DNA of 24,423 nt from an uncultured Pseudomonadales bacterium (GTDB lineage: Bacteria; Patescibacteriota; Microgenomatia; UBA1400; UBA12108): positions 4,078 through 28,500 of the forward strand of contig CAZBML010000001.1 in NCBI GenBank assembly GCA_964493295.1, in the 5' to 3' direction. The position numbers and the translations under genes were made by a program. This document shows positions 621-13,905 of the stretch, piece after piece. The notes under the pieces were generated by a model. That model was not told the origin of the DNA. It was given only the letters and a program-made list of their open reading frames with translations, and made no database searches. Numbering within the stretch: position 1 is the stretch's first letter; each line of letters opens with the position of its first letter.

Positions 621-625
621 GAGAT

Positions 626-695
626 AAACTCTAAACCATAAATACTAAACCCTAAATACTAAACCCTAAATACTAAACCCTAAACTCTAAACCAT
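626..695. repeat. Tandem heptamer array, 10 units (AAACTCT/AAACCAT/AAATACT/AAACCCT)
   Basis: Read directly: aaactct aaaccat (aaatact aaaccct)x3 aaactct aaaccat. Confidence 0.95.
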
Positions 696-712
696 AAAAA
701 ACTTGAAAGAAA

Positions 713-1078
713 CTAAATAGCCTTTGTGAGAATCGAACCAAATATTTTTCTGAGTTCGATACTTTCCTGGATTAGTTGTTTCCTACTTACCTCTAGGTTT
801 GAGGGTACTCCTTGGAATAACTTCAACCAGAACTCAGACTCCTTGCTTTCTTTGCGAGATATTTTTATCCTCATAAAGAAATCTTTTTTACTCAGACTCT
901 CGTTGGCTTCGATGTAGTTGGCGCCGACTGATCCACTTGATCTCAGAAGTTGGTTTGCATCATTTTGGTTAAGAATATTCTTGGGAACTGATCGGATGAA
1001 AGTGCGAACGTTTTGAGCAAAAAGAAATGTTCTATCTTCTAAATCATATTGTTTTTTGATTGGATTTTCTGTGATCAT
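713..1078 (-). CDS. Four-helix-bundle protein (TIGR02436 / 23S rRNA intervening-sequence protein family)
   Basis: YDLEDRTF.FA, QLLRSSGSVGANYIEA, KDF..RIKISRKE.KESEFWL and ELRKIFGSI are characteristic family motifs. Confidence 0.92.
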   Translation of the reverse strand: MITENPIKKQYDLEDRTFLFAQNVRTFIRSVPKNILNQNDANQLLRSSGSVGANYIEANESLSKKDFFMRIKISRKESKESEFWLKLFQGVPSNLEVSRKQLIQESIELRKIFGSILTKAI

Positions 1079-1090
1079 TGGATATTATTT

Positions 1091-1118
1091 AAGATTTAGT
1101 AATTAGAAATTAGGATTT
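1091..1118. repeat. Heptamer array, 4 units, inverted relative to the 626-695 array
   Basis: aagattt agtaatt agaaatt aggattt; resembles the reverse complement of the left array units (agggttt/agtattt). Confidence 0.75.
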
Positions 1119-1838
1119 ATCGGTTGAGTCAGTTTCCTGATCAATTGTGTGTTGGAGTTCGTCTGCCGAACGGTAGAGATTTTTGAGATCCTCGTAGAGA
1201 GTTTGCATTCCGGTACGAACTGATTTAACTTTTTCTTGGGGAATGAGGAGGGAAAGTGAATCGAGTGCAGAGATGAGCGTATTTTTGAGATTGAGAGAGA
1301 GGAAGAGGAGGGTATCGGTTTCTTCGCTCCCTAAGTGTTTGGAGAGAATCTGGCGAGCCCTTTTTTCCTCGAGACCTGTTTCGTATTGATGACCGGTAAA
1401 AATGGCAAGTGGGGTGATCATCACGAGAGCCAAGAGCTCGGATAAATGGGCTAGATCGGTATGAATCGTGCCTGGGATGAAGAGGAAAAATAGGATGAGG
1501 ACACCAGTCAAGACGAGAGTAGCCTCGATTTCGTAAAGCATGGCCACGGCAAAAAGCAGGAAGTAGCAGAGGAAGAAGAAGGGGGAGGTGAGGGCACCTG
1601 TCTCGGTGACTAGGAGGAGAATCATGGCTGTCAGAATCGTGATATCGAGAGTGATGGCGCTACGATGGAACCATTTGGGTTTTTTGGTTCTGAGCCAGTG
1701 CGAGCCCAAGTAGAGCAGAACGAGTGTGGCGACGAGCTGGAGGGTATAGGGGTGGAGGGCAGGGACGGAGAGCCAAAAATATACTCCGGCAGTGGAGAGG
1801 AGGAGTAGGCTAGTATGGAGCAAGAATCGTGTGGGCAT
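1110..1838 (-). CDS. Hypothetical multi-pass membrane protein with cytoplasmic helical C-terminus
   Basis: 242-aa ORF with about 5 hydrophobic segments followed by a charged helical tail; TGcTATATT lies 7 nt before the ATG. Confidence 0.85.
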   Translation of the reverse strand: MPTRFLLHTSLLLLSTAGVYFWLSVPALHPYTLQLVATLVLLYLGSHWLRTKKPKWFHRSAITLDITILTAMILLLVTETGALTSPFFFLCYFLLFAVAMLYEIEATLVLTGVLILFFLFIPGTIHTDLAHLSELLALVMITPLAIFTGHQYETGLEEKRARQILSKHLGSEETDTLLFLSLNLKNTLISALDSLSLLIPQEKVKSVRTGMQTLYEDLKNLYRSADELQHTIDQETDSTDKS

Positions 1839-1867
1839 TGTGATAAATATAGCAGAAAATGTCGTAA

Positions 1868-2128
1868 CTATTCTATGCGGTTTTGACGAAGAGTACAGAG
1901 CTCAATTTGTCCGTTGCACTGTTTGCACGATTCTAATCCTTCAGCAACTCTTTTTGCAGCATAACTCATGGAATCTCTTACATAGTAAACTTTATGATAT
2001 CCTAATCCAAGGTGTGGAGTCAGCACTAACAATGTGTTTTCGTACCTTCCAACTACCGACTCATCTTCTCCTACAAAATGCTGTAGATTTGCCTGACAGT
2101 AGGCTGTTTCTAGATATTTAAATGACAT
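1868..2128 (-). CDS. Small hypothetical protein (86 aa, MSFKYLETAY..., C-terminal CKQC...C)
   Basis: Sub-ORF of the 1868..2440 track ORF; a perfect TATAAT lies 7 nt before the ATG at 2128. No recognisable family. Confidence 0.45.
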   Translation of the reverse strand: MSFKYLETAYCQANLQHFVGEDESVVGRYENTLLVLTPHLGLGYHKVYYVRDSMSYAAKRVAEGLESCKQCNGQIELCTLRQNRIE

Positions 2129-2136
2129 TTTTGATA

Positions 2137-2159
2137 TTATACACATGTGATGTGTATAA
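2137..2159. promoter_or_regulatory. Inverted repeat TTATACACAT-gtg-ATGTGTATAA between divergent promoters
   Basis: 10-bp perfect arms with a 3-nt spacer; overlaps the minus-strand TATAAT at 2136-2141. Confidence 0.55.
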
Positions 2160-2189
2160 ATATAGATTATGGGGTATAATACATAAAAT

Positions 2190-2663
2190 ATGAAGGAAAT
2201 GCGTTCATTAAGACCATTGCCATGGACTGCGTCATCAGAATTACATAAACTTGGAGAGTTATGCAAGGGAGGGGGAGTAGTTACTTTGGAAAACGATGGA
2301 GGGGATATCTTATCCGACCTGCTAAACAGGCAAGAGCAGCTTTTAGTACATACCGAATCAGGTGTAATGTTGGACATAACCGGGGCTCCGACGATAGTAA
2401 TGCTGGAAGTTGATAGGAGCAAGAGCGCGGGTCGAGACATGCCAGATAGACTGGCAACATTTGGTGCTTTTCAATGTGTCCTAGATTTGGTTGAACTATA
2501 TTTGCTCAAGCACAACTTGGATTTTATCCAATTTGCATTTCAAGCGCCACCAGGGTATCCCTGGCATGGTCTAGTTGAATTATTGGAGCTGAATACAAGC
2601 GTGCTTGTGTCTGATGGAAGAGAATATATACATATGCCTGGAAAAATTTTTTACTCAACCTAG
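2190..2663 (+). CDS. Hypothetical protein (157 aa)
   Basis: ORF with TATAAT (2175-2180) 9 nt before the ATG; no recognisable family. Confidence 0.65.
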   Translation: MKEMRSLRPLPWTASSELHKLGELCKGGGVVTLENDGGDILSDLLNRQEQLLVHTESGVMLDITGAPTIVMLEVDRSKSAGRDMPDRLATFGAFQCVLDLVELYLLKHNLDFIQFAFQAPPGYPWHGLVELLELNTSVLVSDGREYIHMPGKIFYST

Positions 2664-2681
2664 CCAGAGACTTGGCTTGCG

Positions 2682-2972
2682 TTACTTTTTTCTGGCACAA
2701 CCAATTCCAGTTATCTCCTGTTCTTCGACGTTGATGAGAGGCTCATCCTCAAATGTGTAACATGATCCTTCATAGTTGGTTATTAACCATTCTGCTCTAC
2801 CTATCGCCACTTCACGGGGGATATTTTCAAATCGAGCAAAGATAAATCCGTATTTGTTATGAACAAAAATAACTCCTTCTGTAGGTGGTGGCTGAGTAGA
2901 TTCGGGACTACTGCAGGCCGCACACAGCATCAATGCGAGTAAACTAGCTATTTGTATATTTAGTTTAAACAT
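2682..2972 (-). CDS. Putative lipoprotein (96 aa)
   Basis: Start reassigned to MFKLNIQ (2972), which has TGgTACAAT 7 nt upstream. A hydrophobic stretch ends in the lipobox-like LCAAC, followed by an S/P/T linker. Confidence 0.6.
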   Translation of the reverse strand: MFKLNIQIASLLALMLCAACSSPESTQPPPTEGVIFVHNKYGFIFARFENIPREVAIGRAEWLITNYEGSCYTFEDEPLINVEEQEITGIGCARKK

Positions 2973-3207
2973 GTGGGGGATTGTACCATACTTGCATATT
3001 ATGGGACTAGTTGATAAAATATACGTAGGAGATGTGTACATGACTGAAAACAAACGTCAAATGACGATACATGCGAGTCAAGTAGGACTAGCAAACAGTG
3101 TTGGTCTAATATTTTTGTAATTTATTCTTCAGCGTTCAAGGATGGGTGGCGCGATGATGAGCAAGAATAGTAGGTGAGTTGCTTGGTTGTTGTAGAATAG
3201 CTTTTGT

Positions 3208-5712
3208 ATGAAAAAAGCCAAAACTTACGTCCTAGGCATGTTCCCGTACCCCTCAGGTGAGGGTCTGCATGTTGGGCACGTGCGGATATTTACTGCGTGT
3301 GATGTGATGGCCCGCTACTTTAGGATGAAGGGGCAAGATGTCCTCTCCCCGATGGGGTGGGATGCGTTTGGACTGCCGGCGGAGAACGCGGCCATTAAGA
3401 ACAAAACCATCCCCCAGAAGATCGTGCCGCGTAACTACGGTAACTTTAAAAAACAAATGCAGAACTTGTCACTCTCTTTTGATTGGGAGCGCGAATTTGC
3501 GACTACTGATCCAGATTACTATGCCTTCACCCAGTGGATCTTTCTCCAACTTTATAATAAGAAAGATGATGATGGGAGACGGCTAGTATACCGAGAACAG
3601 GTGCCGATCAACTGGTGTCCCAAGTGTTTGACTGGACTGGCGAACGAAGAGGTTTTGGCGGACGGGACGCATGAGCGATGTGGGACGGTGGTAGGCAAAA
3701 AACTTTTGCCACAGTGGGTGATGAGGATCACCGCCTATGCCGAGCGACTGCTAAATGATCTGGACATGGATTTGACGGAGTATTTCGGACAATCAGAAAA
3801 CTCAGAGATCCAGAGAATCAGAGGGTCAGAGAGTCGGAAAGGGTTAGATTGGCCAACTGGTATTTTGGAGATGCAGAGGAACTGGATAGGGAAGAAGGAG
3901 GGAATGCGCCTTTTCCACAAAGTCGAGGGAATGGATTTGCAGTTAGACGCATTTTCTGCTTATCCTATCTGGTGTTTTGCCGATACATTTATGGTTATTG
4001 CACCAGAGCACCCATTGGTTAGTAGGTTGGTTGAGGGCACAGAATACGAAAAGACAGTAAAAGAATTTGTGGAGGAATCGAGTAAGATCACGGCGGAACA
4101 GCGAACAGAAGACAAATTTGAGAAAAAAGGAGTATTTACCGGGAGATATACAAATGATCCCTTTAACCCGGGCAAAAAATTACCTGTTTGGGTAGCTAAC
4201 TTTGCCATGATGGGCTTTGGTACTGGTATTATCCGTTGTTCATCTCATGATCCACGTGACTACGAATTTGCTCTTAAGTACAAAATAACCCTGAAAGAAG
4301 TGGTCGAGAGAACCGATCCGAAAGAACCAGTAAATGCCCATACCAATGAGGGAATACTAAAGGATTCTGGCGTGTTTAGCGGCAAGAGAATAAGTAAAGA
4401 AAGTATAGAAGCAGTAAAAGACTGGATCGAGAACGAGGGTATCGGGAAGAGAGAAACAACCTATCATTTGCGGGACTGGGTGTTTAGTAGACAAAGATAC
4501 TGGGGAGAACCGATACCACTCGTGTATTGTGAGAAGTGTGGAGACGAGAATGGAGTGGTCCCACTGTCAGAAGATCAACTTCCTTTAACCCTGCCCGAGC
4601 TTGAGAGTTATGAGCCGACCGAAACAGGCGAATCACCTTTGGCGAGAGTCAAAGATTGGGTGAGCACTAAATGCCCTCACTGTGGTGGTCGTGCAACACG
4701 AGAGACCGATACCATGCCCAACTGGGCGGGATCTTGCTGGTACTTTTTGGCGTTTGCCTTTTGGCATGGCTCAAATCCTAGATCTCAAATCCTAGACCCT
4801 AAACAAGTTCAAAATTCGAAAGCAAAAACAAATCGACCATACACCGATTGGTGGATGAAGATTGCTTTGCCGGAGATCAAAAAATGGTTGCCGGTCGAGT
4901 GGTACCTGGGCGGGGCAGAGCACGCAGTATTGCACCTTTTATATGCACGTTTCTGGGTGAAAGTGCTCCAGGATTTGGGACTCCTTGATTTCCCTGAGCC
5001 GTTTTTGCGTCTTAGGTCGGTGGGTCTTGTTTTGGCAGAAGATGGCAAGAAAATGAGTAAATCGCTTGGCAATGTGGTCAACCCAGATGATATGGTGGCC
5101 AAATATGGGAGTGATGCTACGCGGATGTATGAGATGTTTATGGGACCATGGGAACAATCAATTGCTTGGGACAGCGGAGCAATCAGTGGGCAAGTACGTT
5201 TCTTGGGGAGAATCAAGGATACGATCAATCAAAAGGGAAAACTGGGGGAGCAGACGACGGGATCTTTAGCGGCCAAACTCAAAGCTCTGGTTAACCGAGT
5301 CGAGGAGGGAGTGTTGAACCAAAAATTTAACACGAGTATCGCGGGGCTGATGGAGTTTGTAAATGCTTGGCGGGAACCTGGGATGGTATTGTCCAGGGAA
5401 CATTTAAACATTTTTGCGGCACTGCTTTCGCTGTTTGCTCCAGAGACAGCCAAGGAAATAGTACAAGGTACGGAACCTTGTAATTGGCCAGATGTGACAG
5501 GGATAGATGAGGGCAAAGAGACGATGGTCACGATCGCCGTGCAAGTCAGTGGGAAACTGAGGGGGACGATCGAAGTGAGTAAGCTGGAATCAGAAAACAA
5601 GGAGAAAGTAGTAGCTCTGGCGATGGAGGATGAGCGAGTGAAGAAGTGGGTAGTGGGAGAAGTCAAAAAGACTATATTTATACCTGGGAAATTGGTGAAT
5701 TTGGTGGTTTGA
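3208..5712 (+). CDS. leuS: Leucine--tRNA ligase (class I)
   Basis: MFPYPSG.GLHVGH (HIGH motif), MGWDAFGLPAENAAI, MQRNWIG, LRDW.FSRQRYWGEPIP, RETDTM, YLGGAEHAVLHLLYARFW, KMSKSLGN, and a C-terminal VQVSGKLRG ... PGKLVNLVV. Confidence 0.99.
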   Translation: MKKAKTYVLGMFPYPSGEGLHVGHVRIFTACDVMARYFRMKGQDVLSPMGWDAFGLPAENAAIKNKTIPQKIVPRNYGNFKKQMQNLSLSFDWEREFATTDPDYYAFTQWIFLQLYNKKDDDGRRLVYREQVPINWCPKCLTGLANEEVLADGTHERCGTVVGKKLLPQWVMRITAYAERLLNDLDMDLTEYFGQSENSEIQRIRGSESRKGLDWPTGILEMQRNWIGKKEGMRLFHKVEGMDLQLDAFSAYPIWCFADTFMVIAPEHPLVSRLVEGTEYEKTVKEFVEESSKITAEQRTEDKFEKKGVFTGRYTNDPFNPGKKLPVWVANFAMMGFGTGIIRCSSHDPRDYEFALKYKITLKEVVERTDPKEPVNAHTNEGILKDSGVFSGKRISKESIEAVKDWIENEGIGKRETTYHLRDWVFSRQRYWGEPIPLVYCEKCGDENGVVPLSEDQLPLTLPELESYEPTETGESPLARVKDWVSTKCPHCGGRATRETDTMPNWAGSCWYFLAFAFWHGSNPRSQILDPKQVQNSKAKTNRPYTDWWMKIALPEIKKWLPVEWYLGGAEHAVLHLLYARFWVKVLQDLGLLDFPEPFLRLRSVGLVLAEDGKKMSKSLGNVVNPDDMVAKYGSDATRMYEMFMGPWEQSIAWDSGAISGQVRFLGRIKDTINQKGKLGEQTTGSLAAKLKALVNRVEEGVLNQKFNTSIAGLMEFVNAWREPGMVLSREHLNIFAALLSLFAPETAKEIVQGTEPCNWPDVTGIDEGKETMVTIAVQVSGKLRGTIEVSKLESENKEKVVALAMEDERVKKWVVGEVKKTIFIPGKLVNLVV
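3793..3841 (+). repeat. Degenerate octamer tract inside leuS
   Basis: tcagaaaa c tcagagat ccagagaa tcagaggg tcagagag tcggaaag, encoding SENSEIQRIRGSESRK. Confidence 0.75.
4774..4821 (+). repeat. Heptamer-based 48-nt coding element in leuS (NPRSQILDPKQVQNSK)
   Basis: ctcaaat cctagat ctcaaat cctagac cctaaac...; 37/48 nt match the copy at 6098-6145 (counted by hand). Confidence 0.8.
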
Positions 5713-5743
5713 TATTGAGCTTAGAGTTTGCTAGGCTTAGGGG

Positions 5744-6325
5744 GTGGAGAAAATTGTAGATTTTTTGAGAGAGTTGGGGGGGATCGTGATTGTGGGGCTC
5801 ATTGGGGGCGGAATTTTGATTTACGGATTAGGGGGAGTGATGGGGGGAGAGCAGGCGACAGTAGAGATTGTCAAAAATCAGCCACAAACTAGCGAGATCG
5901 TGGTTGATGTTGCTGGAGCAGTGGAGAAACCTGGAGTGTATACACTGCCAAGTGGATCAAGGATCGGTGATGCGCTAGTTTTAGCTGGTGGTTTGTCTCT
6001 CAAAGCGGATAGAGAGTGGGTGGCAAAAACGGTTAATCTTGTAGCCCAACTAGAAGATGGTGCCAAAATATACATCCCAAGTACAAACAGTAACGGAAAT
6101 CCTAAATCCGAAGTCCTAAAACCTAGACAAATTCTCAATTCAAAATTGATAAACATTAACACCGCGAGTGTGGGGGAGCTCGATACACTAGCCGGGATTG
6201 GGGAGGTAAGGGCGCAGGCGATTGTGGCCGGGAGGCCGTACAGCGCGACAGAGGAAATAGTGAGTAAAGCCAAGATACCACAGTCGGTATATGAAGAAAT
6301 TAAAGATTTTCTTAGTCTTTATTAG
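5744..6325 (+). CDS. comEA: ComEA competence DNA-binding protein (TM, SLBB and helix-hairpin-helix)
   Basis: IVVDVAGAVEKPGVYTLPSGSRIGDAL..AGGL (SLBB), DG.KIYIP, and ININTAS..ELDTL.GIG..RAQAIV..RPY (HhH). Confidence 0.95.
   Translation: MEKIVDFLRELGGIVIVGLIGGGILIYGLGGVMGGEQATVEIVKNQPQTSEIVVDVAGAVEKPGVYTLPSGSRIGDALVLAGGLSLKADREWVAKTVNLVAQLEDGAKIYIPSTNSNGNPKSEVLKPRQILNSKLININTASVGELDTLAGIGEVRAQAIVAGRPYSATEEIVSKAKIPQSVYEEIKDFLSLY
6098..6145 (+). repeat. Heptamer-based 48-nt coding element in the ComEA linker (NPKSEVLKPRQILNSK)
   Basis: cctaaat ccgaagt cctaaaa cctagac aaatt ctcaatt caaaa; same frame and peptide pattern as the leuS copy. Confidence 0.8.
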
Positions 6326-7457: not shown

Positions 7458-7466
7458 TGAATCGAT

Positions 7467-7575
7467 TTTGCCGCCATTCCAAGTCGAAAATCGGTGATAT
7501 TCGTCTGGTGACGAATTCACCTAGTTCTCGGCCTACCCGGCCTGCGCAATTTTTTCTTTTGGAACGAGCGGCAAA
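7467..7575. other. Intergenic structured element (outer stem plus internal hairpins); candidate ncRNA or MITE-like repeat
   Basis: TTTGCCGC..TTCCAA (7467-7482) is complementary to TTGGAA...GCGGCAAA (7559-7575). Internal hairpin GGTGA-t-ATTCGTC-tggt-GACGAAT-TCACC at 7493-7521. Confidence 0.5.
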
Positions 7576-7590
7576 CTCTTTCCCATTTTT

Positions 7591-8490
7591 ATGAAGAAGT
7601 ACGCATTTTATCTGGTAGGAATGTTGATAGGTTTTGTGATGCTTGTGGTGGGACAGCTACCGGGAGAGAAAGCCAAAATGGTGGTGTGTGATGTGGGGCA
7701 GGGGGACGCGATCCTGATAATCAAAGGTAGTAACCAGGTTTTGATCGACGGCGGACCAAGCGGAGAGAAAGTACTCGCCTGCCTGGGAGAGCACTTACCG
7801 TTTTGGGATCGCACAATAGAGCTTATAGTTTTGAGTAACACAGATTATGATCATCTCAACGGGCTAAGTAGTGTAGTAGAGAGATACGAGGTGATGCAGT
7901 TTGTAACATCTGACGGGGTACACAGTAGTGATTCTTTAAACAAACTAATTGATAGACTGGCATTGGCAGGAATAAAAGTAGTGGCAGTGGAGAGAGGGGA
8001 TGTGATCAGGGTGGGTAGGGGCGATACTATGTCAGAACTGATCTTTGAGGTGTTATGGCCGCCCATGACCGATCAGCAGAATGTTGCGATCTTTAGTGGC
8101 CAAATGGCAGAATCACAGCGTGAGCAGATACTAGGGGCGAGTGCCAAACGGGGTAACCTCAATGAGAGGTCCGTTGTGCTCTATTTACTAGAGGGTGGGG
8201 TAAAAATAATGCTAAGTGCTGACTCTGGAGACCAGACAGAGAAAGAACTGATCAAGCTGGGCAACGTGCCTGACATTGATATACTCAAAGTAGGTCATCA
8301 TGGATCAAAGTATGCCAGTACCACAGAATTCTTGGATTTAATCAAACCAGAACTCGCCATAATCTCCGTGGGTGCAAAAAACAGGTATGGCCACCCGACG
8401 AATGAAACCATAGAGCGGCTAAAGCAAATAGGTGCACAGATAAAGCGAACCGACCAAGAAGGAACGATAGTGATCCCGCTCGCCAAATAA
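7591..8490 (+). CDS. ComEC-associated metallo-beta-lactamase-fold hydrolase (split ComEC C-terminal domain)
   Basis: DVGQGDAILI, LIDGGP, PFWDRTIEL.VLSNTDYDHLNGL, NERSVVL, DILKVGHHGSKYAS, AIISVGAKNRYGHPT.ET. The canonical HxHxDH reads N-T-D-Y-D-H here. Confidence 0.92.
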   Translation: MKKYAFYLVGMLIGFVMLVVGQLPGEKAKMVVCDVGQGDAILIIKGSNQVLIDGGPSGEKVLACLGEHLPFWDRTIELIVLSNTDYDHLNGLSSVVERYEVMQFVTSDGVHSSDSLNKLIDRLALAGIKVVAVERGDVIRVGRGDTMSELIFEVLWPPMTDQQNVAIFSGQMAESQREQILGASAKRGNLNERSVVLYLLEGGVKIMLSADSGDQTEKELIKLGNVPDIDILKVGHHGSKYASTTEFLDLIKPELAIISVGAKNRYGHPTNETIERLKQIGAQIKRTDQEGTIVIPLAK

Positions 8491-8500
8491 AAATATCAAA

Positions 8501-8534
8501 TGCTACCATGCTCTGTATCATGAGAGCGGTGGGG
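8501..8534. repeat. Degenerate orphan copy of the TrpR-upstream palindrome
   Basis: tgctaccatgctctgtatcatgagagcggtgggg vs tgctaccgtgttctagaacatgagagcggtgggg (13787-13820); 29/34 identical. Confidence 0.8.
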
Positions 8535-8550
8535 TGGGTGCTGGGAACTG

Positions 8551-8780
8551 ATTGGTGGAATAGTGTAACTGTGGAAGTGTGGAGTTGGTATACGGTGAGG
8601 TCGCGAGACAGTGGAGTCGGGAGACTATGGAATTGGGTGGCTTGCAAATGTGTAGCGATCTAACTCTACAATGATGCAAGTGCGAATTGTGCAGCTGAAA
8701 AACGAGGGAGAGAGGGAGATGAGGAGTCGATTGAACGCGTAGTCGCAAAACCGTAGAGCCGTGAAATCGTAGAACTAGGA
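8551..8780. repeat. Three degenerate octamer tracts in the intergenic region
   Basis: attggtgg aatagtgt aactgtgg aagtgtgg agttggta (8551-8590); gacagtgg agtcggga gactatgg aattgggt (8607-8638); aaccgtag agccgtga aatcgtag aactagga (8749-8780). Confidence 0.55.
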
Positions 8781-8952
8781 CATTGCTATGCTGTGGGTAG
8801 GGCTAGGTAGTCAACTATCAATCTCAGATATCGAATGCTAACAGGTTAATTAATACGAGTGCTAAAAATGTGAATACGTCCACAAAGGGGTAAAGTATTT
8901 ACTAGTTTTTACAACTTGTAAAGCTTTGGTAAAGTTGGATGATATGAAAGCT

Positions 8953-8980
8953 AAGATTTAAGATTTATGATTTAGGATGT
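8953..8980. repeat. Heptamer array, 4 units
   Basis: aagattt aagattt atgattt aggatgt. Confidence 0.75.
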
Positions 8981-9265
8981 AAATAAATATAGGGTAAGAG
9001 GAGCGCAAAGTCGAAATTAAATTGTATAAATAATGTTTTGATCCGCTCATTTGATGGATATATAATCTTTTTACCAGGTCTATATCTTATAAATAGAGAG
9101 TAATAATTGTGATCATTGGAGGAGCTTATCTCAGCTGAGTGATGTCGCTGATAGTTTTTTTGATCTAGAGGTCACGATTTATCTCGATAGATATAGGACT
9201 AATCTAGACTTGGTTGGAGAGTGGTAAAAACTAGGAAAAACTGGGTTGTGATACGATGGAGAGAT

Positions 9266-9652
9266 ATGCTAGAGATGGCTTTGTACGCTGCGATAGCCCC
9301 AGTGATTTTGCTCTTGTTGAGCTCGGTAGTCAGCTACCCAGCCGTACTGGAGGAAGTGGTAAAGTGGGGGATACTCAGATTTAGGATTGATGATTTACGA
9401 TTGAGGGTTTATGACGGAGCGGTAGTGGGACTCGTGTTTGGGTTGTCGGAAGCGGTGCTGTATTTGAGCACTACGTGGGGCAGTGGGCAATGGAACTCTT
9501 TGGGATGGCGACTAATTTTGACCGTACCTATGCACACATTGAGTGGTGCAATCATTGGGATAGGACGAGGTGTGCGAGGGGGATGGATACTCGTGTTTGT
9601 GGCGATGGCAATCCATGCTGGATTTAATTATTGGGCATCATTGACGTTGTAG
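9266..9652 (+). CDS. prsW: PrsW-family intramembrane metalloprotease (short form)
   Basis: EE..K, G..G..FG..E, R....VPMH and H..FN motifs. Start moved from GTG 9221 to ATG 9266, which has TGaTACGAT 8 nt upstream. Confidence 0.8.
   Translation: MLEMALYAAIAPVILLLLSSVVSYPAVLEEVVKWGILRFRIDDLRLRVYDGAVVGLVFGLSEAVLYLSTTWGSGQWNSLGWRLILTVPMHTLSGAIIGIGRGVRGGWILVFVAMAIHAGFNYWASLTL
9376..9410 (+). repeat. Heptamer array, 5 units, translated inside prsW (RFRIDDLRLRV)
   Basis: cagattt aggattg atgattt acgattg agggttt. Confidence 0.8.
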
Positions 9653-10227
9653 CGCAAACAAATATAGTTGGTGTCGAAAGTCGTAGTTTCTATGAGTGTG
9701 AGAGTGCGAGGACTGTGAAGTCCAAGTGAGGTCACGGGAGTGCCCGATTCGCCTACTACCAAAGGATAGATAATCAACGTCAAATGATCGACCAAGTTGT
9801 GCTCGAGCCAAGATGCGTTCATCGGGGTAGAGTGGAGAGTGAGGCGAGCTATTTTGAGTCGTGCTAGATAAGTTAAGATGTGGGTGGGAGATTGGGGGGT
9901 ACGTAATATGACCAGTTTGCTCACCGAGCGTCGCAGATAAGCGATGCCAGATTTTGTCAGGACACGATTGAAATCGAGGACAACTAGCGAGAGATGGGAG
10001 CGAGTCGGCGAGCCGGTTTTTTGATTGACTCCAGAGAGGGCCATGACCTCGCCGGTTGTGAGGGCGTAGTCGCCTGACCCGCTAAAATCGAAGAACTGTT
10101 GGAGGTAGCCTAGAACACCCGGTGTTGTGCGCCAGGATGGGTTGTGGTCGGTGAGGATGGCGTCGCGGGAGACGAGCTTGCCGTCGGCTGAGATGGGTAA
10201 AATGAGAGTGGTCGTCGGACGTGGCAT
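9628..10227 (-). CDS. RibD C-terminal / dihydrofolate-reductase-like family protein
   Basis: N-terminal ISADGKL, late L..NLVDHLTLIIYPLVVG..GTP and a C-terminal beta strand ICLRY; TGcTATACT 6 nt before the ATG. Catalytic residues look divergent. Confidence 0.7.
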   Translation of the reverse strand: MPRPTTTLILPISADGKLVSRDAILTDHNPSWRTTPGVLGYLQQFFDFSGSGDYALTTGEVMALSGVNQKTGSPTRSHLSLVVLDFNRVLTKSGIAYLRRSVSKLVILRTPQSPTHILTYLARLKIARLTLHSTPMNASWLEHNLVDHLTLIIYPLVVGESGTPVTSLGLHSPRTLTLIETTTFDTNYICLRYNVNDAQ

Positions 10228-10303
10228 GAAGCTAGTATAGCAGTGAAATAAAAGTAGTCATTCAACCTGACATATTTCTGATTTTGCGAAGGTTATTTTG
10301 TGC

Positions 10304-10424
10304 AAAAACTGCCGGACGCAAATTTTGATCTCCGGTACAGGCGACTTCGTGCCTGTAATGCCCGCCTGCAACGCTTGTGCGTAGCACTACGGGCAGGTCG
10401 ACAAAATTTCATCCGTCAGCTTTT
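10304..10424 (-). ncRNA. Candidate structured RNA (about 121 nt; long closing stem plus two hairpins), family unknown
   Basis: Minus strand AAAAGCUGACGGAUG-AAAUUUUG pairs with CAAAAUUU-GCGUCCGGCAGUUUUU. Internal hairpins UGCCCG...CGGGCA and UACAGGC...GCCUGUA. G-U wobbles occur only in the minus-strand reading. Confidence 0.4.
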
Positions 10425-10451
10425 CCATTATCAACTTTTCCATAAAGAAAA

Positions 10452-12992
10452 CTATTTACCTTCAATAAACTTGGAGTGGACCCAGTAACCCTTGCCATCA
10501 TCGGTGGGGGCAAAACCGATTTGGCGCCATTCACCCTCGGATTTGAAAATATAAACATCAACTGATTGTTTGATTGCCATGATGATGTCGGCAGTGGAGC
10601 TCGGGGCGTTGCGTAGGTTGACCGACGAATCATCTGGGACGACGAGGGTCGATTGGGAGGTATTGGTGGTAGTCTCGCCGAGGATAGATTTTTCGGATTT
10701 GACTTCAATGGTGTCGTGCTTGTCTGGTGCGTGGGTAGGGACGGGAGTGGGCGAGGGGATCATACTTGCTGGTGGAGCCACTTGATTGATGGTTTGTGGA
10801 TCTACCTTGGGCGTGGCAAGCCTGGTCAAAGCGATAGTTGAGATAGCCGTGACAATAACTACGGCAGTAATGATGGCTGGCAGGCGCCAGCTAGGGACTG
10901 GCGCTGATTCGAGACTAGTTTTTGTGGAGGTTGGCAAGGGAGTCGCAGATTCCTGTGGGGTGATGCCGAGTTTTTTGAAGTAAAGAGAGAGAAAAATAAA
11001 CCCAGCCACAACTACCAAGATAATCCCCCAAACCGCGACAGTTTGGACTCCACCCACAAAGCCAAAGACAGAACCAGTGCCAGAGGATTGAGCGACCAGA
11101 TCTTCGAGCCGATTCATGTTGGCGGTGACTTTGGTGAGCTCTAGCTTGGCTTCGCGATAGGTGCGAATGCGATTTTCGGGGGTGACGGCTTTGCCGGTTG
11201 CGAGCACGACTTTGTCCAGGGTCACGTCGATGTCAGATTTGAGAGTGGTACCCTGGGAAAAGTAAGCGGTCTTTTCCAGTGGCTTGAGGAGGTTACTGGC
11301 TTGATTGCGGAGAGTCTGGATTTCGTCTGGGGATAACTGCCAGATATCTTCGAGTTCGATAAAAATCAACTTGGTTTCTTTGGGTTTGAGGCTGTATGAG
11401 CCAGAGGCGTAGAGCGCCTCTTCTTTGGGGTCGTAGGTGGTAGAGAGCGAGGAGTCGAGCTCGATAATGTCGGTCGTTTTGACTTCGCGGGGCAAGTAAA
11501 ATTTGAGCGGGACAGTTTGGCTGATCACGGGACTCGGGTTGGTGATGACCGCGCGGAAAATAATACTACCTTCTTCGAGCCAGAGTGAGCGGATGGGCTG
11601 TCCGACGTTGAGGGCGAGGAGCTGGGTATTTAAACCGATCAGAGCTTGTAGAGAGTAGAGAATATTTTTGAAATTGAGACGGGGGTCAGAGCCAGTTTTG
11701 GCTGGAGAAGCCAGAGAGTCGCCACCAGGGAATTGATTGAGAGTCAAGAGTCTTGATTTGATTTGATTGACTTCACTTTCGGTAGATTTTAGTCCCTGGC
11801 CACTCAAGTTTTCGAGGACGGCGGCGATTTTTTGATTTTCACTGCGCAAAGTTTGATGGCGCTCGCTGACAGATGACAAATAGCCAAACATGGTTTGGTC
11901 ACCGCTGACATTGGTGGTGTCACCGAGCACTGCTTCGAGGGTGTCGAGGGTGGTCAAGCTAGAGAGGAGGGTAGGCGGAGCGAGCTTGGTTTTGTTGATG
12001 GTGGTCGAGCTCAGGAGAGTCGAGAGCTCTTGTTTGAGGGTTTCGATGTTGGCGTTGAGGGTGGTAACCGCCTGGGTATCCCAGGATTTGGTGAGCTCGA
12101 TGAGGGGGTCGGAGTTTTGGAACAGGCTGGCAATAGAGGTGATTTCGCTGGCTACAGCGTCTTTAGTCAAACGATCCCATTTGCTATCGAGGACAAGGAG
12201 ACGTGATTTGGCGGTTGAGATGTGGTCAAAGAGGAGGCTGGCGTTTTTGCGGCTTTGCTCGAGCTTGGTTTCGAGATCGGGCAGACTCTCGCCGTCTTCG
12301 AGGGAGAGGGAGATGACGGGGGCGTTGACGATTTTTTCGAGGAGTTCGCGCTGGACTTTTTGCTCGGCCAAAATGCTTTCAAGGGAGGAGGGGAGAGGGG
12401 TGCTAGAGGATAAAGCCCGGTTGTCGACGCCCCAGATGTCTGTAACCAGCGATCCAAACGAAGTCATGGTGCGAGAGGAGTAACCCCAGATATCGCTGAC
12501 CAGGTTGCCAAAGGAAGTGAGGGTGCGACCTGAGTAGTTCCAGATATCTGAAACGAGAGTGCCGTACCCGGTCAATGTGCGGTCGGAGTAGCTCCAGATA
12601 GAGGCCGCAGTGAGTGAGGAACCGGACTCTGCTTTAACTTCAAAGGTTTTGTCGAGACAGAGATAGTCGGAGCCGGCAGTGCAACAAATGCTCGCAGGGT
12701 AGAGGCCGGTAGTCGTGTCCGTCGTGGCGTCGTATTTGTACCAGCCGTCGGCTGAGCCCGTCATAGCGACACCGTTTAAAAAAGTGGTGCCACCGGGATA
12801 CTTGGCGGTGAGGGTACAAGCCGCGCCGGTTAGGGGGGGGTAGTCGTCGTCGTATAAATACTCACCAATCGTACAGGTGGCAGAGGTGGTACATTGCTGG
12901 TAGTCAGTGGCGCGGGTATGCGCTGGAGCCGCCAGCGCAATTGAGCTAATTAGGCAGATTAGGTAAATTTGGCGAATTAGGTTCCGGGGCAT
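10452..12992 (-). CDS. Large exported/membrane protein: signal peptide, Cys-rich domain, 18-aa repeats, coiled coil, 2 TM segments, C-terminal bacterial SH3-like domain
   Basis: Hydrophobic N-terminus ending A-H-T-R-A; TMs at VWGIILVVVAGFIFLSLYF and AIITAVVIVTAISTIAL; SH3-like VNLRNAPS...EGEWRQI...GYWVHSKFI. Confidence 0.85.
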   Translation of the reverse strand: MPRNLIRQIYLICLISSIALAAPAHTRATDYQQCTTSATCTIGEYLYDDDYPPLTGAACTLTAKYPGGTTFLNGVAMTGSADGWYKYDATTDTTTGLYPASICCTAGSDYLCLDKTFEVKAESGSSLTAASIWSYSDRTLTGYGTLVSDIWNYSGRTLTSFGNLVSDIWGYSSRTMTSFGSLVTDIWGVDNRALSSSTPLPSSLESILAEQKVQRELLEKIVNAPVISLSLEDGESLPDLETKLEQSRKNASLLFDHISTAKSRLLVLDSKWDRLTKDAVASEITSIASLFQNSDPLIELTKSWDTQAVTTLNANIETLKQELSTLLSSTTINKTKLAPPTLLSSLTTLDTLEAVLGDTTNVSGDQTMFGYLSSVSERHQTLRSENQKIAAVLENLSGQGLKSTESEVNQIKSRLLTLNQFPGGDSLASPAKTGSDPRLNFKNILYSLQALIGLNTQLLALNVGQPIRSLWLEEGSIIFRAVITNPSPVISQTVPLKFYLPREVKTTDIIELDSSLSTTYDPKEEALYASGSYSLKPKETKLIFIELEDIWQLSPDEIQTLRNQASNLLKPLEKTAYFSQGTTLKSDIDVTLDKVVLATGKAVTPENRIRTYREAKLELTKVTANMNRLEDLVAQSSGTGSVFGFVGGVQTVAVWGIILVVVAGFIFLSLYFKKLGITPQESATPLPTSTKTSLESAPVPSWRLPAIITAVVIVTAISTIALTRLATPKVDPQTINQVAPPASMIPSPTPVPTHAPDKHDTIEVKSEKSILGETTTNTSQSTLVVPDDSSVNLRNAPSSTADIIMAIKQSVDVYIFKSEGEWRQIGFAPTDDGKGYWVHSKFIEGK
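12408..12605 (-). repeat. Four 54-bp (18-aa) coding repeats xxIWxYSxRTLTxFGxLV
   Basis: ASIWSYSDRTLTGYGTLV / SDIWNYSGRTLTSFGNLV / SDIWGYSSRTMTSFGSLV / TDIWGVDNRALS. Confidence 0.9.
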
Positions 12993-12998
12993 AGTAAG

Positions 12999-13181
12999 TT
13001 AGGTTTTTTTCTTGCTAATTTTTTTGTCTTCTTCGTCGTCATCGTCGTTTAGACCAGCGCGGAATTCTTTCATTGCTTGGGCAATGCCGCGAGCCAGCTC
13101 GGGGAATTTTTGCCCGCCGAATAAGACCATGAGGACGACTGCGATAATAATGATTTCACCGGTGCCAATATTTTGAAACAT
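12999..13181 (-). CDS. tatA: Twin-arginine translocase TatA/TatE subunit
   Basis: IG..EIIII..V...LFGG.K.PELARGI..A.KEFR plus an acidic tail; SD AGGAG upstream. Confidence 0.93.
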   Translation of the reverse strand: MFQNIGTGEIIIIAVVLMVLFGGQKFPELARGIAQAMKEFRAGLNDDDDEEDKKISKKKT

Positions 13182-13257
13182 ACAACTCCTTTGCTTATTA
13201 CTATAGTTCCAGTGTATTGATTATTGAGGGTGGTGTCAAGGCAGGAAAGAGGGATAT

Positions 13258-13701
13258 TTAGAACGATTTTTTGCGTTTGGATCTAGCTTGATTGGTTCGC
13301 TGGTAGTGAGCGCTCCAGTTGGTACCTTTTGGGGGTAAAAGATGATCAATTTTTTCTTCGATTTTGTCAAAAAAACTGCGGATTTTTTCGACCCTGAGCA
13401 TGCGATCCACGACTAGTTGGTAGCCGTTGTTTTTGCCTTTGAGGGTGAGACTAATTTTGTTGACCGTGCTCAAACCTACTTTGAGGGTACCCACAATGCT
13501 CCTTTGGGAGTAGCCCTTTTTGATCATGTAGGCGATCGCAAGCCGCTTGCCGAGCATGATTTGCTCGGTAGGAGACAAGAGGTCCTCGACAAAACTACTG
13601 ACTGCGTCCCTCGAGCTCAGGCTCGAAAGTGTAGAAATAAACATCTCAAAAATCTGACCAGAAACTTTGGGTGGCAAGTATTTGCGTGAAACTTGTGACA
13701 T
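13258..13701 (-). CDS. TrpR/YerC/YecD-like helix-turn-helix regulator
   Basis: DLLSPTEQIMLGKRLAIAYM...G.SQRSI...LKVGLSTVNK; SD GGAGG upstream. Confidence 0.85.
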   Translation of the reverse strand: MSQVSRKYLPPKVSGQIFEMFISTLSSLSSRDAVSSFVEDLLSPTEQIMLGKRLAIAYMIKKGYSQRSIVGTLKVGLSTVNKISLTLKGKNNGYQLVVDRMLRVEKIRSFFDKIEEKIDHLLPPKGTNWSAHYQRTNQARSKRKKSF

Positions 13702-13730
13702 ATAAAACCTCCATCGTAACGAATATTTAT

Positions 13731-13762
13731 TATGCTACCATGTTCTAGAACATGGTAGCATA
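13731..13762. promoter_or_regulatory. Perfect 32-bp palindrome over the predicted -10 of the TrpR-like gene (putative operator)
   Basis: TATGCTACCATGTTCT|AGAACATGGTAGCATA. The minus strand reads TTTACA-18 nt-TACCAT, with TG just upstream of the -10. Confidence 0.8.
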
Positions 13763-13786
13763 GGTAAAAGTGTGTTGTAAAGTAGG

Positions 13787-13813
13787 TGCTACCGTGTTCT
13801 AGAACATGAGAGC
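13787..13813. promoter_or_regulatory. Second, imperfect copy of the palindrome
   Basis: TGCTACCGTGTTCT|AGAACATGAGAGC; its centre is 54 bp from the first copy's centre. Confidence 0.75.
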
Positions 13814-13834
13814 GGTGGGGAGGGAGCAGGGGAG

Positions 13835-13905
13835 AGGATTTAGGAAGTAGGAAGGCAGGATTTAGGAATTAGGAGTTAGGAAATAGGAATTAGGATTTAA
13901 GAAAG
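13835..13905. repeat. Heptamer array, about 10 units (AGGAWWT)
   Basis: aggattt aggaagt aggaagg c aggattt aggaatt aggagtt aggaaat aggaatt aggattt aagaaag. Confidence 0.9.

Follow-up and report, generated by a model that had tools for sequence, protein, structure and literature searches.

Arrays in the window

The window (the whole stretch of 24,423 nt that was analysed) encodes, among others, a SIMPL protein, a PF05635 four-helix-bundle protein, leucyl-tRNA synthetase, ComEA, ComEC and PrsW. Degenerate tandem arrays of heptamers are scattered between and within these genes (Table 1). The earlier note had listed seven such period-7 tracts in both orientations. All seven were confirmed by direct reading and by a scan for matches to (GATTTAG)3 with a threshold of at least 16/21, which placed them on both the plus and the minus strand, and six of the seven were independently recovered by Tandem Repeats Finder. 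The first 14 kb hold seven arrays versus 1.5 expected (P=0.001). The remark that none was noticed beyond 14 kb also holds, as no array at the scan threshold lies in the window past position 13905, but only about 0.6 arrays would be expected there and their absence is therefore uninformative.

Table 1. Repeat arrays of the window and the gene enclosed by the first two of them (TRF, Tandem Repeats Finder).
Feature	Position	Strand	TRF row	Context and content
Array, about 10 heptamers	625..699	-	625-698, period 7/14/28	Between SIMPL gene stop and PF05635 gene stop; left arm of cassette; units on minus strand GGTTTAG/TATTTAG/AGTTTAG
PF05635 (23S_rRNA_IVP, four-helix-bundle) gene	713..1078	-		Pfam 9.5e-11; cargo between inverted arrays
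Array, about 5 heptamers	1083..1121	+		Right arm of cassette; units GATTTAG, TAATTAG, AAATTAG, GATTTAT
8-nt array of a second family, about 5 copies of NNTCAGAG	3791..3832	+		In frame in leuS; encodes SENSEIQRIRGSES
Array with AT-rich tail	4770..4821	-	4770-4796, period 14	In frame in leuS, antisense; encodes GSNPRSQILDPKQ; scan match 4770-4804
Array	6091..6145	-	6097-6125, period 7	In frame in comEA, antisense; encodes NGNPKSEVLKPRQ; scan match 6091-6128
Intergenic array, 4-5 units	8949..8984	+	8952-8982, period 7	In 730-nt spacer upstream of prsW; units GATTTAA, GATTTAT, GATTTAG
Array	9374..9415	+	9378-9411, period 14	In frame in prsW, sense; encodes LRFRIDDLRLRVYD
Intergenic array, about 10 units	13832..13905	+	13835-13903, period 7	Between trpR-like gene (-) and 1167-aa gene (+); units AGGATTT/AGGAATT

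The heptamer array of leuS occupies a lineage-variable loop of LeuRS between the motifs WAGSCWYFL and WLPVxWYLGGAEHA, and a closely related sister genome (G007) lacks repeats in this region and has 57 nt less. The comEA array fills the linker that joins the SLBB and HhH domains, where G007 has a sequence of equal length without repeats. The prsW array is near-identical in G007, and the intergenic array upstream of this gene is kept there with substitutions. The interval that holds the last array of the window measures 132 nt in G007 versus 85 nt here, and the array at 13835-13905 is extended by 70 nt (10 units) in a strain contig of run X10. The 8-nt array of leuS falls at the transition from the catalytic N-part to the editing domain, and its stretch matches more than eight dispersed loci of G007. 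The array at 1083..1121 provides ORF 1110-1838 (minus strand) with its final codons and stop. In metagenomes of CPR bacteria, arrays disrupt assemblies, lead to faulty gene calls at the ends of genes and serve as markers of variation between strains.

A dispersed heptamer family and its turnover

The host genome (G000) is a draft of 865 kb in 127 contigs, 72% complete and with 47% GC, which was placed in the Microgenomates (CPR/Patescibacteria) by the relatives of its LeuRS. Its arrays are built of the unit GATTTAR (GATTTAG or GATTTAA; consensus frequencies G.70, A.78, T.73, T.80, T.84, A.81, G/A.55/.21) and are dispersed across the whole genome, on more than 50 contigs. At the threshold of at least 16/21 the scan yielded 94 arrays, compared with 8-11 in Markov simulations of order 1, 3 and 5; at least 17/21 was reached by 71 arrays (0-2 simulated) and at least 18/21 by 41 (none simulated). 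Altogether the family amounts to about 94 arrays and about 490 units, with array lengths of 21-86 nt and a median of 36 nt. Runs of three TTAG-N3 motifs were counted 34 times at period 7 versus 0-1 times at the other periods among 5-12, and a motif-free search for self-similarity detected 79 period-7 tracts genome-wide versus 0-3 in simulations. The simulations, the period-7 peak and the Tandem Repeats Finder rows all point to head-to-tail 7-nt units beyond what composition would give, as in the class of heptanucleotide long simple-sequence repeats (LSSR). The genome-wide repeat system proposed in the earlier note is thereby borne out (94 arrays versus about 9 in composition-matched simulation): the tracts exceed the composition background and their units share the GATTTAR consensus. 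Chance, or a compositional artefact of AT-rich spacers, has only the low complexity of the unit in its favour and is refuted by array numbers 10- to 40-fold above those of Markov order 1-5 simulations and by the sharp period-7 peak, so that its probability is close to nil. Outside arrays, the single unit GATTTAG is not over-represented genome-wide (observed/expected 0.98) and GATTTAA reaches 1.16. Units within one array diverge strongly from one another, and arrays at separate loci resemble each other only as much as arrays assembled at random from the pooled units would, one marginal pair excepted.

Over half of the arrays (51 of 94) are located within intergenic DNA or at its border, whereas non-ORF DNA makes up 13% (p=2e-21), an enrichment of about 4-fold. 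About 40 arrays are found in frame inside genuine housekeeping genes. All 20 host ORFs that were checked are long conserved reading frames, 19 of them with Pfam matches, and the hosts include RF, MetRS, Ile/ValRS, FolD, CCA enzyme, MnmA, TruB, RNR, UvrC, TopA and ligase. Many coding arrays fall in inter-domain linkers, which, together with the LeuRS loop and the ComEA linker, agrees with the earlier proposal that the repeats are tolerated in permissive protein loops. An origin at the nucleic-acid level, also proposed there, is upheld by the equal numbers of sense and antisense copies in genes (18:18) and by the two different recurrent types of 7-residue periodic peptide that they encode, LNPKSxI and DLRFKIQ, one for each strand. 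Length differences between coding arrays and their counterparts in G007 are all multiples of three (57, 6, 9, 12, 6, 30, 15, 27, 36 and 18 nt), and units that end in a stop triplet are less frequent in coding arrays (fraction 0.54-0.58) than in intergenic ones (0.73). Beside start codons, taken from crude longest-ORF calls, 28 arrays were counted, 20 in sense and 8 in antisense orientation (p=0.036), and array orientation agrees weakly with the local GC skew (58 of 94).

About 17 intergenic arrays could be mapped to G007, and only about three of them are conserved at flanks that are 83-97% identical, the others being absent or swapped for arrays of TAGATGC, CTCTGGC, ACTGATT or GAGAATTT. Array sequence evolves much faster than the flanks, and some arrays are seen as insertions of 50-100 nt. 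Unit number varies as well, a property of the LSSR class: as compared on assembled contigs, the X10 strain contig has 10 additional units and one array on contig C60 differs by 14 nt (2 units) between G000 and G007. A period-7 tract is present at the orthologous site of G007 for 25 of 59 G000 loci versus 6 of 476 controls (Fisher 2.5e-21), and at that of the outgroup G001 for 9 of 52 loci versus 11 of 319 controls (Fisher 5e-4). The relatives carry 7- or 8-nt arrays at similar density with different units, including 70 period-7 tracts in G001 (mostly CAGATTC/CTGGAAT), 15 period-7 tracts per 200 kb in G025, with other units again, and 13 period-8 tracts per 200 kb in G037. The lineage trait is the period and not the unit, and a GAT/ATC core is common to most units of three genomes. 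GATTTAR itself is expanded in unrelated families of the class (30 matches in G102, 17 in G044, 12 in G042 and 11 each in G120 and G183) and this expansion is missing from the congeners of these five genomes; such patchy recurrence is a hint that the unit spreads horizontally or is favoured in several lineages alike, and does not simply drift freely. No match to MutS_I was obtained in 40 of the 41 genomes of the host's order that were searched. Because the order as a whole lacks MutS, and MutS acts poorly on 7-nt loops, its absence explains little.

Inverted arrays, PF05635 cassettes and a proposed origin of the family

Most arrays are direct. Among inverted pairs, nine read CTAAATC...GATTTAG versus 1-3 in the opposite arrangement. 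There are about ten hairpin elements, 95-175 nt long, most of them with minimum free energy z-scores of -1.9 to -3.9; two fold no better than shuffled sequences. A link to four-helix-bundle genes, suspected in the earlier note, was observed throughout the genome, in which all three PF05635 genes are bracketed by inverted array arms. In the window, the arms at 625-699 and 1083-1121 are predicted to form a duplex of -23.3 kcal/mol (z -2.4), and the cassettes on contigs C68 and C16 yield -36.2 (z -6.0) and a z-score of -2.3, respectively. The G001 ortholog of the C68 cassette is built of another unit and its arms are still complementary (-32.9, z -6.1), while the G007 ortholog has inverted arrays of a third unit with weak pairing (z -1.8) and a right arm truncated by an assembly gap. 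In inverted arrays, the arms remain able to pair inside each genome even though the unit changes from one genome to the next. The neighbours of the window cassette are protein-coding (the SIMPL gene and an ORF of 242 aa), and the block 620-1126 (507 bp) is an indel: G007, G001, G002 and G018 lack it at their orthologous junction, and so does a strain contig from run X2 (joint 618->1127).

Our preferred explanation, to which we would give about an even chance, is that the arrays are self-renewing simple-sequence DNA that arises by slippage, template switching and recombination and persists where it is tolerated, with no sequence-specific cellular function for most copies. Strand slippage would lengthen or shorten arrays in whole units, fold-back template switching would provide them with inverted partners, and recombination with other arrays or imported alleles would overwrite or seed them, so that the predominant unit becomes species-specific while the period of 7 nt (sometimes 8 nt) is kept. 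Survival would be limited to places of low harm, namely the spacers between genes and, in proteins, linkers or surface loops, where protein-level selection would retain only stop-free arrays with a length that is a multiple of three. A subset may have turned structural, with inverted arrays as long AU-rich stems around short loops or PF05635 genes, a build shared with 23S rRNA intervening sequences. In favour of this account of self-renewing repeats are the excess over chance with its period-7 peak, length changes by whole units, arrays that evolve faster than their flanks at sites that persist, a period that characterises the lineage while the unit does not, the lack of a copy-paste signal, stop-poor in-frame copies from both strands, the intergenic enrichment, the missing MutS_I and the pairing arms of inverted arrays. 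It has to face the strong divergence of units within arrays, the patchy distribution of GATTTAR across the class, the non-random orientation beside starts and the one favoured arrangement of inverted pairs. It also faces two clean gains: C20 2755-2853 is present as a whole, with 99 nt in G000 versus 8 and 9 nt in sister and outgroup, and C9 15060-15195 spans 136 nt versus 63 and 61 nt. Local slippage is unable to build these elements, and insertion or allele replacement is therefore needed.

Such clean gains would be expected if the arrays, or at least the inverted ones, were non-autonomous mobile foldback elements, MITE- or REPIN-like and, with PF05635, IVS-like, which a hairpin-recognising enzyme copies in trans and whose decayed halves make up the direct arrays and coding copies. 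The 507-bp cassette that is absent from four relatives and one strain, the set of hairpin elements, the patchy recurrence of one unit across the class, HUH Y1 transposase genes in all five genomes tested and a 48-nt insertion at C55 4610-4668, seen against G007 only and unpolarised in direction since G001 is unmappable there, are in agreement with this reading. We nevertheless consider it rather improbable, as four clean indel junctions show no target-site duplication of the MITE kind, the elements share no conserved termini or core apart from the periodic unit, copies resemble each other like random assemblies of the unit pool, two hairpins fold no better than shuffles and most arrays are direct. 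GC-rich palindromes, and not heptamers, border the Y1 genes at C8 and C41, and the flanks of the Y1_Tnp gene at C24 contain no period-7 or period-8 tract; the fourth Y1_Tnp match, at C16, was left out because it has no callable ORF. A far-reaching extension, likewise doubtful, would see in the arrays the functional ends of foldback elements that are widespread in Patescibacteria and form a class not yet described, with hairpins copied to gene junctions and protein loops and PF05635 as cargo or helper. Selection would then preserve the pairing of the arms, and the unit would pass as dialects from lineage to lineage by horizontal transfer; if this were true, the intervening sequences of 23S rRNA would be one special case of the same element.

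A different reading holds that the arrays are cis-acting platforms for a cooperative DNA or RNA binder that occupies about 7 nt per subunit and acts on nearby genes or the nucleoid, unit and binder co-evolving into species-specific pairs. An omega/heptad-type ribbon-helix-helix repressor, a cold-shock-domain protein and a HutP-like UAG-N4 reader are candidate binders. Sites do persist across species despite complete sequence turnover, an array lies just upstream of the Shine-Dalgarno sequence of the same orthologous gene in G000 (C20 6864) and G001 with unrelated units, sense orientation prevails at start codons, most units of three genomes have the GAT/ATC core and only tandem copies are enriched, as cooperative binding would need; TAACTGA repeats in Beggiatoaceae have been suggested to play such a role as well (PMC4679880). 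However, around 40% of arrays lie within genes in equal orientations, intergenic arrays are poorly kept between G000 and G007, array positions are unlike the Shine-Dalgarno sites of the host (AGGA peak at -13 to -9), a promoter scan gave no enrichment, CsrA was not found in the 72%-complete genome and no candidate binder was identified there, which leaves a binding role unlikely. Very unlikely are DNA-uptake-signal-like sequences, spread by molecular drive in a competent lineage and diversified into species dialects. The window encodes ComEA and ComEC, and species-specific units, equal orientation in genes, permissive protein sites, inverted pairs and an allele-like replacement inside conserved flanks resemble features of USS/DUS. 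Known uptake sequences, however, are single 9-12-mers and not tandem, the density here is only about one array per 9 kb, and neither form of the unit departs far from expectation outside arrays (0.98-1.16), in contrast to the over-represented single motif that defines USS/DUS.

Comparison with known repeat systems

Heptamers are the most over-represented long simple repeats of bacteria, with unexplained origin and role (PMC4692102, PMC4679880); this over-representation goes back to a 2007 survey of prokaryotic SSRs by Mrazek and co-workers, as cited in the same two papers. The present genome adds a dense family at tiny, sub-megabase size, a sister genome in which arrays are swapped at flanks still 90-97% identical, dozens of in-frame copies within essential enzymes, and inverted arrays with co-varying arms around PF05635 genes. 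These genomes provide a tractable comparative system for telling apart heptamers as mutational debris, binding platforms or mobile hairpins, and bear on the emergence of new protein loops from simple repeats and on the origin of rRNA intervening-sequence cassettes.

The earlier comparisons with STRR-type heptamers and with the coding insertions of Rickettsia (RPEs) proved apt. RPEs, as summarised in PMC10969869, are about 150 bp long, form ten sequence families with a conserved encoded peptide each, and lie in frame in unrelated housekeeping genes as function-compatible peptide segments as well as in intergenic DNA. The same in-frame placement was found for LeuRS, ComEA and PrsW in the window and for 20 further hosts, but the arrays span only 21-86 nt, occur on both strands and have no conserved sequence beyond the 7-nt unit; similarity between loci stays within the unit-pool null, which excludes a conserved element of about 100-150 bp. 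REP/BIME/REPIN elements likewise form extragenic hairpins from inverted doublets, and the genome encodes Y1 (HUH) transposase homologues, but the arms here are internally periodic and variable instead of a fixed 20-40-nt palindrome, and a REPIN/RAYT system is set aside as heptamer arrays do not flank the inspected Y1_Tnp genes (C8, C41, C24). With the 23S rRNA IVS the cassettes share a PF05635 ORF enclosed by inverted repeats able to pair into a long stem; they differ in stems made of heptamer arrays and in lying between protein-coding genes, the window cassette being outside any 23S rRNA helix.

The TAACTGA repeats of marine Beggiatoaceae, cyanobacteria and Bacteroidetes comprise 2-6 copies at about 170 sites, many of them just upstream of starts in forward orientation and some in ORFs, with one indirect repeat and a patchy phylogeny for which no transfer mechanism is evident (MacGregor 2015, PMC4679880). 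Heptamer direct repeats, copies within some ORFs, patchy distribution and stop triplets in the unit are common to both, whereas the present family has another, degenerate unit, a weak upstream and sense bias (20 versus 8) and common inverted pairs. Closest to the arrays, together with the TAACTGA repeats and the RPEs, are the GGGAATC heptamers of Xanthomonas and the STRR-type GGGGA(T/C)T heptamers of Nostoc, with about 180 arrays per genome and 70-75 convergent inverted pairs per Xanthomonas genome (Rehm et al. 2015, PMC4692102). Dispersed tandem 7-nt units, a non-coding excess, variable unit number and stem-loop-capable inverted pairs recur here, and even the units are alike (GGGGATT and GGGAATC there, TAGGATT and AGGAATC here). 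Cyanobacterial STRRs proper are ruled out by the GATTTAR unit (versus GGGGA(T/C)T or CCCCAGT types in heterocystous cyanobacteria) and the Microgenomates host. Unlike in Xanthomonas and Nostoc, the unit is AT-rich with GG at most, so that no G-quadruplex is expected; the family does not belong with the G-quadruplex-forming GGGNATC repeats, defined by at least four G3 tracts per array, and GGG occurs only in 625-699, every 14 nt. Long-unit SSRs are reported mainly from large GC-rich genomes in the account of PMC4692102, whereas this genome is below 1 Mb with 47% GC, and its predominant unit, unlike those of Xanthomonas and Nostoc, changes between congeneric species. The heptamer arrays are of a kind known from cyanobacteria and Xanthomonas, in an unusual build.

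A genome-wide family of heptameric arrays

Direct reading of the sequence confirmed heptamer periodicity at each of the seven sites listed by the earlier note. Six of them were called by Tandem Repeats Finder with a period of 7 or 14, and the seventh (1091-1118) was recovered by a scan with (GATTTAG)3. The first 14 kb of the window are approximately 4.6-fold enriched (7 arrays versus 1.5 expected, P=0.001). No array was present in the window beyond position 13905, as had been noticed before, where only about 0.6 would be expected.

The genome under study (G000) is a draft MAG of 865 kb in 127 contigs (46.6% GC, 72% complete, 3.6% contamination), and the window belongs to its contig C1. With at least 16, 17 and 18 of 21 matches to (GATTTAG)3, it contained 94, 71 and 41 arrays, compared with 8-11, 0-2 and 0 arrays in sequences simulated by Markov models of order 1, 3 and 5. 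In the pattern searches across other genomes, a reversed-pattern control was disregarded because GATTTAG reads identically backwards. The pattern (TTAG-N3)x3 occurred 34 times at period 7 and at most once at the other periods from 5 to 12. A genome-wide scan for period 7, as proposed by the earlier note, was run by motif-free self-similarity and yielded 79 period-7 and 22 period-8 tracts (simulations, 0-3). Units from separate sites were found to share a consensus (G.70 A.78 T.73 T.80 T.84 A.81 G/A.55/.21). The median array length is 36 nt with about 490 units in total, and the single heptamer is not over-represented outside arrays (observed/expected 0.98). A chance origin of the arrays is excluded. 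Contig ends were not enriched, with 8 of the 94 arrays at a distance of 200 nt or less (5.9% expected, p=0.19).

Coordinates of arrays and array gains, and array units flanking an orthologous PF05635 gene. Window coordinates are from the (GATTTAG)3 scan; contigs (C) are those of G000.
Feature	Location	Strand	Details
Array	window 625-699	-	
Array	window 1083-1121	+	
Array	window 4770-4804	-	in leuS
Array	window 6091-6128	-	in comEA
Array	window 8949-8984	+	
Array	window 9374-9415	+	in prsW
Array	window 13832-13905	+	
Gain	C20 2755-2853		99 nt vs 8 and 9 nt; G001 outgroup
Gain	C9 15060-15195		136 nt vs 63 and 61 nt; G001 outgroup
Gain	C27		81, 58 and 18 nt; G001 outgroup
Gain	C19 8295-8395		101 nt in G000 and G007, units differing, vs 21 nt in G001
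PF05635 flanks	G000		(TAGGAAC)n and (GTTCCTA)n
PF05635 flanks	G007		(GATTTAR)n and (CTAAATC)n
PF05635 flanks	G001		(CAGATTC)n and (GAGTCTG)n

The nearest LeuRS genes come from Microgenomates-group MAGs, which identifies the host as a CPR/Patescibacteria bacterium. Among 40 relatives, GATTTAR arrays with up to two mismatches were abundant only in G000 (56) and its congener G007 (53), the others containing 0-9. The sequences of two congeners, G007 (936 kb) and G001 (819 kb), were pieced together for comparison. G007 contains 55 period-7 and 35 period-8 tracts, and G001 has just about two GATTTAR arrays but 70 period-7 tracts, mostly of CAGATTC/CTGGAAT. In 200 kb each, G025 from another family showed 15 period-7 tracts of other units, and the relative G037 showed 3 period-7 versus 13 period-8 tracts, the latter of GAGTTTTT. 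As the unit differs among relatives while the short period recurs, it is the period that characterises the lineage, and the unit is a dialect at species level. Across 200 sampled genomes of the class, with up to one mismatch, the GATTTAR array showed an expansion to 30, 17, 12, 11 and 11 matches in members of a few unrelated families, but not in their congeners. Of 41 genomes from the order (G000-G040; completeness of 90% or more in 30 of them), just one was found to encode the N-terminal domain of MutS (MutS_I, PF01624), and MutS-type mismatch repair appears to be missing from the lineage; its absence is not a discriminating explanation, since it extends to the other 40 genomes. An array with an 8-nt period (NNTCAGAG, about 5 copies) lies in frame in leuS at 3791-3832 and encodes SENSEIQRIRGSES. 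This stretch matches more than eight dispersed loci of G007 and thus represents a second short-period repeat family.

Arrays beside and inside genes

Gene positions were taken from crude longest-ORF calls covering 87% of G000. By these, 31 of the 94 arrays fall between genes and 20 overlap the end of one, so that intergenic DNA is strongly enriched in arrays (p=2e-21). By the same crude calls, arrays beside start codons are more often sense than antisense (20 versus 8, p=0.036) and those beside stop codons number 23 sense and 14 antisense, while both orientations are about equally frequent within genes (21:22 for all ORF calls, 18:18 for ORFs above 600 nt). In a perfect array each of the six frames is interrupted by a stop codon, so that arrays often provide the stop of a gene, and the ORF at 1110-1838(-) is one whose stop is supplied in this way. 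Supply of Shine-Dalgarno sequences was rejected, as AGGA/GGAG peaks at -13 to -8 and the AGGA of an array would fall at -14 and -7, without a consistent fit. A promoter or terminator role was likewise dismissed, with one promoter-like match overlapping an array and no enrichment. Neither CsrA (PF02599) nor reverse transcriptase (PF00078) was found in the 72% complete G000.

The remaining 43 of the 94 arrays lie within ORFs, and all 20 host ORFs examined outside the window are long conserved frames, which bears out the claim that the tracts also occur inside coding sequences. Matches to Pfam families were obtained for 19 of these 20. They include release factor, MetRS, FolD, MnmA, TruB, CCA-adding enzyme, an Ile/Val-type tRNA synthetase, ribonucleotide reductase, UvrC, topoisomerase I, ATP-dependent ligase, glycosyltransferases and O-antigen-ligase-like proteins. 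The coding arrays are located in inter-domain linkers or where the protein exceeds the Pfam profile, in agreement with the proposed tolerance in permissive protein regions. In leuS, the array encodes GSNPRSQILDPKQ within a loop that non-CPR LeuRS lack and that varies in length among Microgenomates, the comEA array encodes NGNPKSEVLKPRQ within the SLBB-HhH linker, and the prsW array encodes LRFRIDDLRLRVYD. Genome-wide, the recurrent peptides are (I/V)LNPKS(Q/E/K) from antisense and (Q)DL(R/G)FK(I/V) from sense arrays. In coding arrays each third unit is changed exactly at the would-be in-frame stop, e.g. to GATTCAA in place of GATTTAA, and the fraction of units ending in a stop triplet is 0.54-0.58 versus 0.73 in intergenic arrays. 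Length differences of coding arrays between G000 and G007 are multiples of 3, not 7. The earlier note had placed the selection or mechanism behind the repeats at the nucleic-acid level; this holds, and the two strand-specific peptides, the stop avoidance and the multiples of 3 are as expected of a nucleotide process whose products are filtered by protein-level selection.

The leuS gene (window 3208-5712) is about 80% identical to its G007 counterpart, compared with 90-94% for its neighbours, and the G000 LeuRS loop resembles that of more distant Microgenomates (PYTDWWM...ALPEIKKW) and not of the closest relatives G007, G001 and L070. Sequence comparison suggests recombination within leuS. At G000 C55:2800-2885, in a 161-aa ORF adjoining an assembly gap, AGGAATT/AGGAATC units are repeated twelve times almost perfectly, with a superperiod of 21 nt; translation would yield a protein repeat of 7 residues.

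Turnover of arrays and inverted pairs

Identity between the window and its syntenic contig in G007 is 80-94%, and 68 of the 94 G000 arrays could be mapped to G007. Conserved arrays are mostly coding, e.g. prsW. An array on contig C60 differs by 14 nt, i.e. by whole units, and the interval of the 13832-13905 array measures 85 nt in G000 versus 132 nt in G007. Many arrays are unalignable despite flanks of 90-97% identity; at these sites G007 either has nothing or carries an array built from a different unit, which may run in the opposite orientation. The sites persist, with a period-7 tract present at the orthologous interval of 25 of 59 G000 loci in G007 (controls, 6 of 476) and of 9 of 52 in G001 (controls, 11 of 319). 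Units at shared sites are often unrelated, such as GATTTAR and ATGGTCA upstream of the same gene or CCTATCT and CAGATTC. Gains were polarised with G001 as outgroup. Strains were compared through assembled contigs from other samples, not reads; in a contig of the public run X10 the 13835-13905 array is exactly 70 nt (10 units) longer.

At about ten loci of G000, an array is followed by its own reverse complement within approximately 20-90 nt. Nine have the arrangement 5'-(CTAAATC)n ... (GATTTAG)n-3' and one to three the opposite one, and most fold better than mononucleotide shuffles (z -1.9 to -3.9), while two do not. All three genes of the four-helix-bundle family PF05635 (23S_rRNA_IVP) in G000 directly adjoin arrays. 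The cassette at 620-1126, consisting of one such gene between two arrays, is missing at the exact junction of two convergent neighbour genes in G007, G001, the relatives G002 and G018, and the strain of run X2, whose contig joins 618 straight to 1127. This distribution indicates a recent gain. One orthologous PF05635 gene carries inverted arrays on both sides in G000, G007 and G001, with a different unit in each. Computed arm pairing, again scored against mononucleotide shuffles, is strong in G000 (-36.2 kcal/mol, z -6.0) and G001 (-32.9 kcal/mol, z -6.1) and weaker in G007 (-13.0 kcal/mol, z -1.8), where an assembly gap breaks up the right arm. Arms taken from different genomes pair less strongly than those within G000 and G001. 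Intervening sequences of rRNA have the same build as the PF05635 cassettes, whereas the cassettes described here lie between protein-coding genes. A PF05635 gene of G007 is directly followed, at C16:13607-13840 of that genome, by a pair of long perfect (CTAAATC)n runs with an assembly gap between them; array length may far exceed what short-read assemblies can resolve.

Other mobile or repetitive sequences were also encountered. All five genomes tested carry Y1_Tnp homologues, and a link to the arrays was rejected as the genes are flanked by GC-rich palindromes or hairpins instead. At G000 C41:3286-3789 and C8:11275-11694, a RAYT-like Y1 transposase adjoins three GC-rich palindromes of the GGGCGGACACAGGGGTCCGCCC type and an IS200-like TnpA has GGCCTAAAGGCC hairpins on its flanks. 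The spacer that follows the RibD_C gene contains a structured, GC-rich repeat of approximately 57-100 nt (window 10290-10400). Over 15 copies of it are dispersed in G007 (82-93% identical), others occur in G001, and in strain contigs segments at 10339-10397 are replaced. The repeat may be a REP-like family belonging to RAYT-like Y1 transposases. Between comEC and the MBL-fold gene lies an intergenic repeat of 125 nt (7468-7592) that has copies on several G007 contigs (75-90% identical) and in G001 and G002. The 808-nt segment at 1857-2666 is a presence/absence polymorphism, as the contigs from runs X1 and X4 pass directly from 1857 to 2666 and thereby lose the ORF 1868-2440 and adjoining sequence.

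Interpretation and relation to known repeats

About even odds are given to the reading that the arrays are a self-renewing heptameric family of long simple sequence repeats, tolerated in spacers and protein loops. Renewal would proceed by slippage, fold-back template switching and recombination, and a subset of the arrays may be used as hairpin stems. Purely local slippage is disfavoured by the gain of whole elements, by the divergence of units within arrays and by the patchy recurrence of the same GATTTAR unit across the class. Two rivals are therefore taken seriously, both at a low and nearly equal probability. The arrays may be a cooperative binding platform, or they may be foldback elements mobilised in trans; for the latter, no target-site duplication was seen at array indels, and likeness between loci was no higher than among random assemblies of the unit pool, with C27/C48 as the sole marginal exception. 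A function as DNA uptake signal is very unlikely.

Two further candidates were set aside. In the comparison of loci for copy-paste relationships, the LeuRS and ComEA arrays are not among the top pairs, and a supposed non-periodic core, TAAACAARTT, after six arrays continues the 7-nt period, the sequence downstream being unconserved.

The GATTTAR family failed the defining tests of STRR proper, RPE, MITE, REPIN and USS, and no report of heptamer repeats in Patescibacteria was found in a literature search. The nearest described kinds are the heptamers of Xanthomonas (GGGAATC) and Nostoc (GGGGA(T/C)T), which are scattered, vary in number and are over-represented in non-coding regions, each Xanthomonas genome having 70-75 inverted pairs (PMC4692102), and the TAACTGA repeats of Beggiatoaceae (PMC4679880). 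For the coding copies, Rickettsia palindromic elements are the nearest kind (PMC10969869). The family described here differs from these in its AT-rich unit, which permits no G-quadruplex, in the very small size of the genome, in the high share of copies that lie in frame in essential genes, and in a unit that turns over among congeners while the sites persist.
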